Below, in pieces: positions 21,225-22,643 of a stretch of DNA of 64,000 bases. The position numbers and the translations under genes were made by a program. Within the stretch, counting starts at the first letter, position 1. Each line of letters begins with the position of its first letter. The DNA is from Escherichia coli (GTDB taxonomy: Bacteria; Pseudomonadota; Gammaproteobacteria; Enterobacterales; Enterobacteriaceae), in NCBI RefSeq assembly GCF_017348835.2, contig NZ_CP071375.1; one strand, 5' to 3'. Under the pieces are notes generated by a model that did not search any database, was not told where the DNA came from, and saw only the letters and a list, made by a program, of their open reading frames with translations.

Positions 21225-22643
21225 TCAGACAACTTCCTCACCGTAACGCATAGTGCTGGTACGGTTGCGCCCATCTTTCTTCGAGCGATACAGACACGTA
21301 TCAGCTTCGACCATCAATTTATTAAAGTCATCGGTCAGCGTTCGGTACGATGCGCGACCACTACCGACGCCAATACTTACCGTGAGATAAAGCGTTTTTT
21401 GTTGCCAGGTGAATGGTTGCAGTTCAACGCCTTTACGGATTTTTTCCGCCATTAGCAGACCATCGACAGGATTCACCGACGGCACTGCAACAGCAAATTC
21501 TTCGCCGCCCATGCGCGCCACCAGCCCCTTATCACCGACAATCTTCTGAATATGCCGGGCAAACACGCTTAACACTTTATCGCCACATTCATGTCCATAG
21601 TTATCGTTAATACTTTTGAAATAGTCGATATCAAGCAGCATGACAGTCAGATGTTATGTCTGTTTCAGCGATGGACTTTTCAGCGCCTCATAAAGGCCGG
21701 ACCGTGAGTAAACCTGAGTCAGAAAATCAAAGTCGGCTCGCAGCGCAACTTGCTTCATTAGCGAATTGATCGCTGCCACGCTAAAAGAAACCATAATTGG
21801 GCATATCGCCATCGTGGCAATACCGAGACGTGCGGAGAACATTTCCGGAATGGAGAACGGCGAACCGACCGAGATATCAATCACCGAATTTGCCACCAGT
21901 ACGATTTCCACCGCACCGGTGACAAAGGTCAACAGACATGTTACCTGCGGCGTATAGCGCACTGCACACCAGATTAATGCAGGCAGCGGGAACGCCAGAC
22001 TCCCCGCTCCGCCAATGACTACCGAGGCAATAACCGACACAATAAGCGCGATGGCGGGCATCATCTGTTCTGCTTTAAAGCGCGGCAGCACTCCAGGAAT
22101 AGCGAACGTCAGCATACAAGGCACGATCAACACGCCCGTTGAGAATTGCTCACTGAACCAGTCCGCAAGCAAAGGCCAGAAATCCAGACTATCAATACTG
22201 ACCGAACCAATCGCCCCGACAATAGCACATAATAATGCGGCAATCAGACAGTAATTAAATAGCCGTAAGGCACTTACTGGCTCATACTTATTTTTCCCCA
22301 GACGCTTATCCCGCACGACCAGTAAGGCGACGGTAACAATAAACATCATATTGGAGAAATTGATAGCCAGTGAAACCAGTCCCCATTCGGTGGTTATGGC
22401 ATCATAAACCAGCATCGCCACATAACTGATCGCATAGTAATGCAGTCGATTAAGCCAGACATAGCGGGCAAACACCCCCGCCATTACGCCATTCAGCGGC
22501 CAGAAAAGAGAAAGTTCGTGAACCAGCCGTAACTCTGCACCAATAAAATAGAACAGCGTGGTTAGCGCAAAAATAGCGATGCTATTACGTAGCAGATGAC
22601 CTTCCTGGAACAAACGGAAAGTTGAAATGGGGTGTACATGCAT
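21225..22643 (-). pseudogene. dgcF: Membrane-anchored diguanylate cyclase interrupted by an in-frame TAA inside the GGDEF domain
   Basis: 329-aa membrane ORF (21654..22643) ends ...SGLYEALKSPSLKQT, then TAA; the 138-aa ORF 21225..21641 carries the rest of the domain (DIDYFKSINDNYGHECGD ... GGEEF). Confidence 0.65.

Follow-up and report, generated by a model that had tools for sequence, protein, structure and literature searches.

The window analysed here is a continuous stretch of 64,000 nucleotides from Escherichia coli. On its minus strand, flanked by yneG and uxaB, lies the diguanylate cyclase gene dgcF (yneF), whose reading frame is broken by a premature stop codon (Table 1). The 1,419 nt of the gene are 99.4% identical to an intact 472-codon dgcF, with 9 differences, and this identity, together with the conserved glsB-yneG-dgcF-uxaB context, takes the match far beyond chance. 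Position and near-identity both assign the gene to the dgcF orthologue group, in agreement with the name it had received in the initial annotation. The gene is found in 5,414 of 5,426 complete E. coli genomes, where it is annotated as dgcF or as a 'sensor domain-containing diguanylate cyclase'.

Two open reading frames (ORFs) of the locus share one minus-strand frame, and positions 21225-22643 translate as 472 codons with a single internal stop. This translation bears out the earlier observation of one in-frame TAA, after which the frame continues into the DIDYFK...GGEEF core. The upstream ORF ends ...SGLYEALKSPSLKQT, followed directly by TAA, and occupies 21654-22643 (minus strand) with the stop codon included. 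The stop had first been placed at 21642-21644, which is 12 nt off; that triplet is GTC (Val334), immediately 5' of the downstream ATG. The surrounding sequence, CAGACA-TAA-CATCTG, contains no homopolymer. Upstream of the gene, the yneG-dgcF intergenic region differs from that of strain LD26-1 by 2 substitutions in 138 positions, and promoter consensus matches, which are pattern matches only, lie at 22704-22675 and 22675-22646. A terminator scan 3' of dgcF found none.

Table 1. Features of the dgcF locus (positions within the window)
Feature	Positions	Strand	Remarks
dgcF (yneF) pseudogene, whole	21225..22643	minus	472 codons, one internal stop plus the normal TGA
Premature TAA, codon 330	21654..21656	minus	CAA (Gln) in intact alleles
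N-terminal ORF, 329 aa	21657..22643	minus	Membrane domain (~residues 1-300) and first 27 GGDEF residues
Residual ORF, 138 aa, MLLDIDYFK...GGEEF...EEVV	21225..21641	minus	ATG is Met335
A-site motif GGEEF, codons 379-383	21495..21509	minus	Intact, 3' of the stop
Codon 180, TTC (Phe)	22104..22106	minus	Leu in the intact alleles compared
yneG-dgcF intergenic region, 138 bp, promoter-like hexamers	22644..22781	minus	Essentially unchanged

Alignment with full-length homologues, proposed in the initial annotation as the way to recover the original codon, gave a uniform answer. All five diverse intact E. coli alleles compared (97.0-99.4% identity) have Gln330 encoded by CAA, and an alignment with LD26-1 and a K-12-type allele likewise shows CAA at the site. 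The lesion is therefore a single C>T transition at codon 330, which corresponds to G>A on the plus strand at position 21656. Relative to LD26-1, the nine differences comprise six synonymous changes, A93V, L180F and the replacement of Q330 by a stop. A93V is a polymorphism, and L180F is, besides the stop, the sole non-synonymous change unique to the window among the alleles compared, the K-12-type allele also having Leu at this position. Since the gene is otherwise intact, without further frameshifts or stops and with six of its nine differences synonymous, its inactivation looks recent.

The consequences of the stop were read from the domain organization of the intact protein. In an intact DgcF allele the Pfam GGDEF family (PF00990, curated threshold 23.8 bits) matches residues 303-461 with 138.4 bits, and an NCBIfam search is concordant. 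Codon 330 thus falls 27 residues into the domain, near its N-terminal end as had been annotated, and just ahead of strand beta1. An AlphaFold model of DgcF, built from a 10-orthologue alignment, is confident for the GGDEF domain alone (pLDDT ~70-88); in it, helix alpha0 spans residues 314-320, and residues 331-339 form strand beta1. The membrane part is modelled as helices throughout with pLDDT below 50 (shallow alignment), and only the alpha0 and beta1 boundaries were therefore used. Because the stop precedes beta1, everything from this strand on is lost from the upstream product, including D338/D340, N346, D355 and the GGEEF motif.

These residues are all encoded in the window, all 3' of the stop, and are invariant in orthologues; the sequence accordingly has the A-site, the metal-binding DxD of beta1 and the substrate-binding N and D of ND..GH..GD. 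The position of the I-site reads GDKG, without RxxD, in agreement with a previous description of the protein (PMC4287979). What the locus lacks is one uninterrupted polypeptide with the whole domain: with TAA at codon 330, inside the domain, it is a pseudogene of the GGDEF family and not a working member. The 27 GGDEF residues that end the 329-aa product consist of the conserved DFDFLTQVYSRSGLYEALK segment and helix alpha0. They contain no catalytic residue, and the product is without the metal-binding aspartates of DID, the substrate-binding positions N346 and D355, and GGEEF.

The residual 138-aa fragment still matches PF00990 with 119.1 bits (E = 2e-34), but over profile positions 36-161 of 161 only. 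Its ORF opens at an in-frame ATG (Met335) located 12 nt, or four codons, past the stop; it starts in the middle of beta1 and is devoid of helix alpha0, the first four beta1 residues and the membrane domain. By comparison, stand-alone GGDEF constructs such as that of WspR (3i5b) include ~26 residues N-terminal of the point at which this ORF starts. Pairing with the anti-Shine-Dalgarno sequence before the ATG at 21641 revealed no Shine-Dalgarno (duplex dG +0.5), as against -3.0 for the native dgcF start and -5.3 to -6.9 for uxaB and glsB. The downstream translation signal that a split but active cyclase would call for was thus not found in the window dgcF.

The 329-aa part shows hydrophobic segments across residues 22-297. 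A polytopic N-terminal membrane domain of ~300 aa fused to GGDEF characterizes the orthologue group, and in the window the fusion is broken by the stop alone. This domain (21747-22643, residues 1-300) is strongly conserved in Escherichia, Citrobacter, Enterobacter and Lelliottia, with many invariant residues. A Pfam search of the 329-aa part returned no meaningful family even at E = 10, and the DgcE model PRK09776 was matched only weakly, in its N-terminal region, which contains MASE1 (E = 7.6e-4). Presumably, the membrane domain anchors and dimerises DgcF. A second diguanylate cyclase gene, dgcZ (35260-36150, minus strand), lies 13 kb from dgcF and is intact.

Homologues naturally split into two genes would have spoken against a nonsense mutation. 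Orthologues from all five genera sampled are fused, single proteins (472 aa in E. fergusonii, 478-479 in Citrobacter, 479-482 in Enterobacter and 482 in Lelliottia). A natural two-gene arrangement was considered and is refuted by these single proteins of 471-482 aa across Enterobacteriaceae, and by the rarity of the TAA-bearing sequence described below. Residue 330, which is Q or R, belongs to a loop of variable sequence that separates the conserved segment of the 329-aa product from the invariant TVMLLDIDYFK strand, within which Met335 is invariant across orthologues. On this alignment, Met335 is a residue of strand beta1 and not an evolved start codon.

In order to place the TAA allele among E. 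coli strains, we searched complete genomes for the exact 61-mer centred on the stop. Only 2 of the 5,403 matching genomes carry it, namely PE164 (pig, Nanjing) and F2_81 (pig, Australia), a count that covers TAA on the ACT-333 haplotype only, as TAA on another haplotype would sit in the 98.4% identity class. RefSeq annotation (PGAP) already flags this very lesion in both strains, giving dgcF an 'internal stop' at the same coordinates. In addition, about 31 contigs, drawn from NCBI, ENA and Logan SRA assemblies, encode exactly this 329-aa product. Three of them were fetched, one each from an assembled SRA run, a draft genome at NCBI and an ENA assembly, and in all three codon 330 has changed from CAA to TAA. 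The stop thus stands where orthologues have a sense codon, appears in independent data and is followed by a colinear remainder of the gene, as in a nonsense pseudogene.

The window is identical to neither PE164 nor F2_81 and would thus stem from a third, closely related genome of the lineage or from another assembly. The window differs from PE164 by 9 mismatches over 52 kb and by a different IS3 arrangement, and from F2_81 by 31 mismatches over 40 kb, with an lsr-region deletion in F2_81; PE164 and F2_81 also differ from each other (indels, IS arrangement, SNPs), yet share the same dgcF TAA. Beyond these two strains, no complete genome reaches at least 99% identity over 24 kb around dgcF, and the TAA strains therefore form one lineage in which the stop was inherited. 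PE164, an aEPEC/ExPEC hybrid of serotype O108:H9, came from a piglet (PMC12233904); the paper describing it makes no mention of c-di-GMP or biofilm, and PMC10459773 makes no mention of DgcF.

Several other features distinguish these genomes. In yneK (26579-27693, plus strand), one nucleotide is missing at gene position 847, around 27425, in comparison with F2_81, and the frame is shifted as a result; the gene is annotated as 'frameshifted' in PE164 and is intact in F2_81. This is another pseudogene, younger than dgcF and a few kb away from it. In marR (29936-30370, plus strand), the window encodes K140N at 30353-30355, F2_81 and strain 88-3493 have the common Lys, and the PE164 MarR is also variant, judged by its distinct protein accession. 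The hipA gene of the hipBA toxin-antitoxin system (about 3697-4899) is interrupted by IS3-derived sequence at 4108-4548, contains a full IS3 in PE164 and is intact in F2_81. In the stretch 56513-59107, an IS3 copy is inverted with respect to PE164, and ~1.3 kb of sequence (57823-59107) has no counterpart in the PE164 stretch compared and matches F2_81. An autotransporter gene at about 5318-8414 (minus strand) is in pieces: it is frameshifted, and N- and C-terminal fragments are annotated in PE164. In F2_81, the autotransporter region and lsrK through part of lsrB are deleted.

Loss of dgcF is not restricted to this lineage. Among 5,416 matching records, 1,227 (~23% of complete genomes) are without 20% or more of the gene. 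Eight sampled low-coverage records match nt 434-1419 only, which is the K-12-type loss of the first 433 nt, and the dgcF of the K-12-like strain JW-5 (4000-4986 of its locus) is annotated as 'missing N-terminus'. The same 138-aa ORF has been called on 572 contigs, where it arises from several independent lesions. In other lineages, all within codons 302-334, it results from R302 to TGA, from an IS insertion at nt 1000 and from two frameshifts, an insertion (+1) at nt 978 and a deletion (-1) at nt 941. It is also left by Q328 to TAG, a C>T change two codons 5' of Q330 in the same loop, found in four complete genomes (B2, PSJ-14, STK39-3-E and EC529; swine, human, chicken and coriander) as against two for the TAA allele, from which it differs in codon, haplotype and hosts. 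This look-up recovers only lesions between codons 297 and 334, since only those after the ATG at codon 296 yield the 138-aa ORF; the apparent clustering follows from this, and any idea of a hotspot is biased accordingly. Some Shigella flexneri and E. coli assemblies carry a 660-664-aa in-frame fusion of approximately the first 246 residues of GlsB (glutaminase B) to DgcF from residue 55, which implies a deletion of yneG and the 5' end of dgcF.

Comparison with known forms of the protein clarifies what kind of loss the window represents. Full-size YneF occurs in O104:H4, O157:H7 and CFT073, and joins a hydrophobic N-terminal domain of ~300 aa to a GGDEF domain whose A-site is intact and which has no I-site (PMC4287979), an architecture that the window dgcF matches. 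It shares with the full-size DgcF of LD26-1 (WP_000558044.1) the locus, the 472-codon frame, GGEEF and the absence of an RxxD I-site, and differs from it in TAA330, in L180F and in ending after 329 residues. The K-12-type gene is naturally disabled too, but there the first 433 nt, together with the promoter-proximal part, have been deleted, and it has been reported as not expressed in W3110 (PMC4287979). Its GGDEF domain is whole and active when overexpressed: the K-12 form gives an increased c-di-GMP signal, which is lost with E224A (PMC11757272). In the window, by contrast, the lesion spares the 5' part and cuts the catalytic domain. The genes dgcE, dgcQ, dgcN and dgcM of Shigella flexneri are likewise each interrupted by one nonsense codon, and an in-frame Met lies within a few codons of it (PMC11327459). 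In these genes, however, the stop comes before GGDEF and the domain is whole downstream, whereas the downstream frame of the window dgcF is without the first 35 profile positions and does not reproduce the Shigella type of split.

The Shigella genes are relevant in that nonsense-mutated dgcE, dgcQ and dgcN still raise c-di-GMP (PMC11327459), and they invite the question of whether the interrupted dgcF might remain functional. The stop and the ATG so close behind it could give rise to two polypeptides, in which case either the membrane domain on its own or the 138-aa fragment with GGDEF might still signal, and the recurrence of independent lesions in one 38-codon stretch just 5' of Met335 would fit such an arrangement. 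We regard this as very unlikely. The Shigella stops precede the domain and keep all of it (Table 1 of PMC11327459), but here the stop lies within it; the 138-aa ORF has no Shine-Dalgarno; Met335 is explained by its place in beta1 in all orthologues; and the clustering of lesions is a detection effect, while their mixed types (nonsense, +1, -1, IS insertion) are those that plain decay predicts. Slightly less probable again is that stops just 5' of Met335, at the junction of membrane domain and GGDEF, were selected rather than neutral, uncoupling the conserved membrane sensor from its cyclase or releasing, through termination-reinitiation, a small GGDEF fragment free of regulation; we give this less credence than the read-through considered next. 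The candidates are the stops Q330 to TAA, Q328 to TAG and R302 to TGA, along with frameshifts close by in other lineages. If true, dgcF would join the Shigella cyclase genes for which a 'stop plus adjacent Met' pattern has been proposed.

A leaky stop would leave a hypomorph and not a null, with low-level UAA read-through producing some full-length DgcF. The base 3' of the dgcF stop is C (TAA-C), and of all fourth bases C supports termination least in E. coli. Termination in E. coli is nevertheless most efficient at UAA, a codon that both release factors recognise, and UAA is neither the selenocysteine codon (UGA) nor the pyrrolysine codon (UAG); recoding at this site was rejected on the latter ground. 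Proteins of full-length size have been obtained from overexpressed nonsense-mutated dgcQ and dgcN (PMC11327459). On the other hand, dgcF is already very weakly expressed (PMC4287979), so that a small read-through fraction would amount to negligible enzyme, and we consider a leaky stop very unlikely as well, if marginally less so than selection at the junction. An error of sequencing or assembly, or a natural two-gene arrangement, has nothing specific in its favour beyond the default caution that any single-base stop deserves, and its likelihood is negligible. The identical substitution in independent assemblies from different countries and platforms, at a site without a homopolymer, excludes a sequencing error, and a two-gene arrangement is at odds with the 5,401 of 5,403 matching complete genomes that lack the exact TAA-bearing 61-mer and with the fused orthologues of five genera.

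Taken as a whole, the evidence favours, with a probability of about 0.87, a genuine, inherited nonsense mutation of dgcF, CAA (Gln330) to TAA, in a small E. coli lineage associated mostly with pigs, PE164 and F2_81 being among its members, by which c-di-GMP synthesis would have been lost. Translation from the normal start halts after 329 residues, comprising the membrane domain and the first 27 GGDEF residues, and the resulting product would be incapable of c-di-GMP synthesis. The 138-codon ORF is unlikely to rescue activity; with no ribosome-binding site of its own, it could be expressed only via termination-reinitiation 12 nt downstream. We infer that the allele is null or nearly null for c-di-GMP synthesis, although some residual activity may persist through reinitiation or read-through, and the truncated membrane protein could retain a non-enzymatic role. 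That the stop removes a source of c-di-GMP, as initially annotated, is thus a prediction from sequence with which our reading agrees. The net effect would be the loss of one minor, mainly RpoS-dependent source, and its effect on the total c-di-GMP pool is probably small, given that DgcF is very weakly expressed and mainly RpoS-dependent (PMC4287979).

The dgcF of the window is a lineage-specific loss-of-function pseudogene of a dispensable cyclase, a case of ordinary gene decay. The TAA allele carries little weight beyond strain bookkeeping and adds a further case to the variation of the GGDEF/EAL gene set among E. coli lineages. In practice, biofilm, adherence and acid-resistance phenotypes of PE164-like O108:H9 pig strains should be read with these strains taken as DgcF-negative. 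In this regard, dgcF influences AR1 acid survival in other strains, and also how they adhere to bladder cells and form biofilm in glycerol medium. Deletion of yneF in CFT073 led to less glycerol-medium biofilm and less adherence, both restored by an exogenous cyclase (PMC3484386), and in S. flexneri dgcF gives a GG-dependent rise in c-di-GMP and has effects on invasion, plaque size and sensitivity to acid (PMC11327459). More broadly, dgcF is a dispensable gene whose loss has occurred repeatedly.
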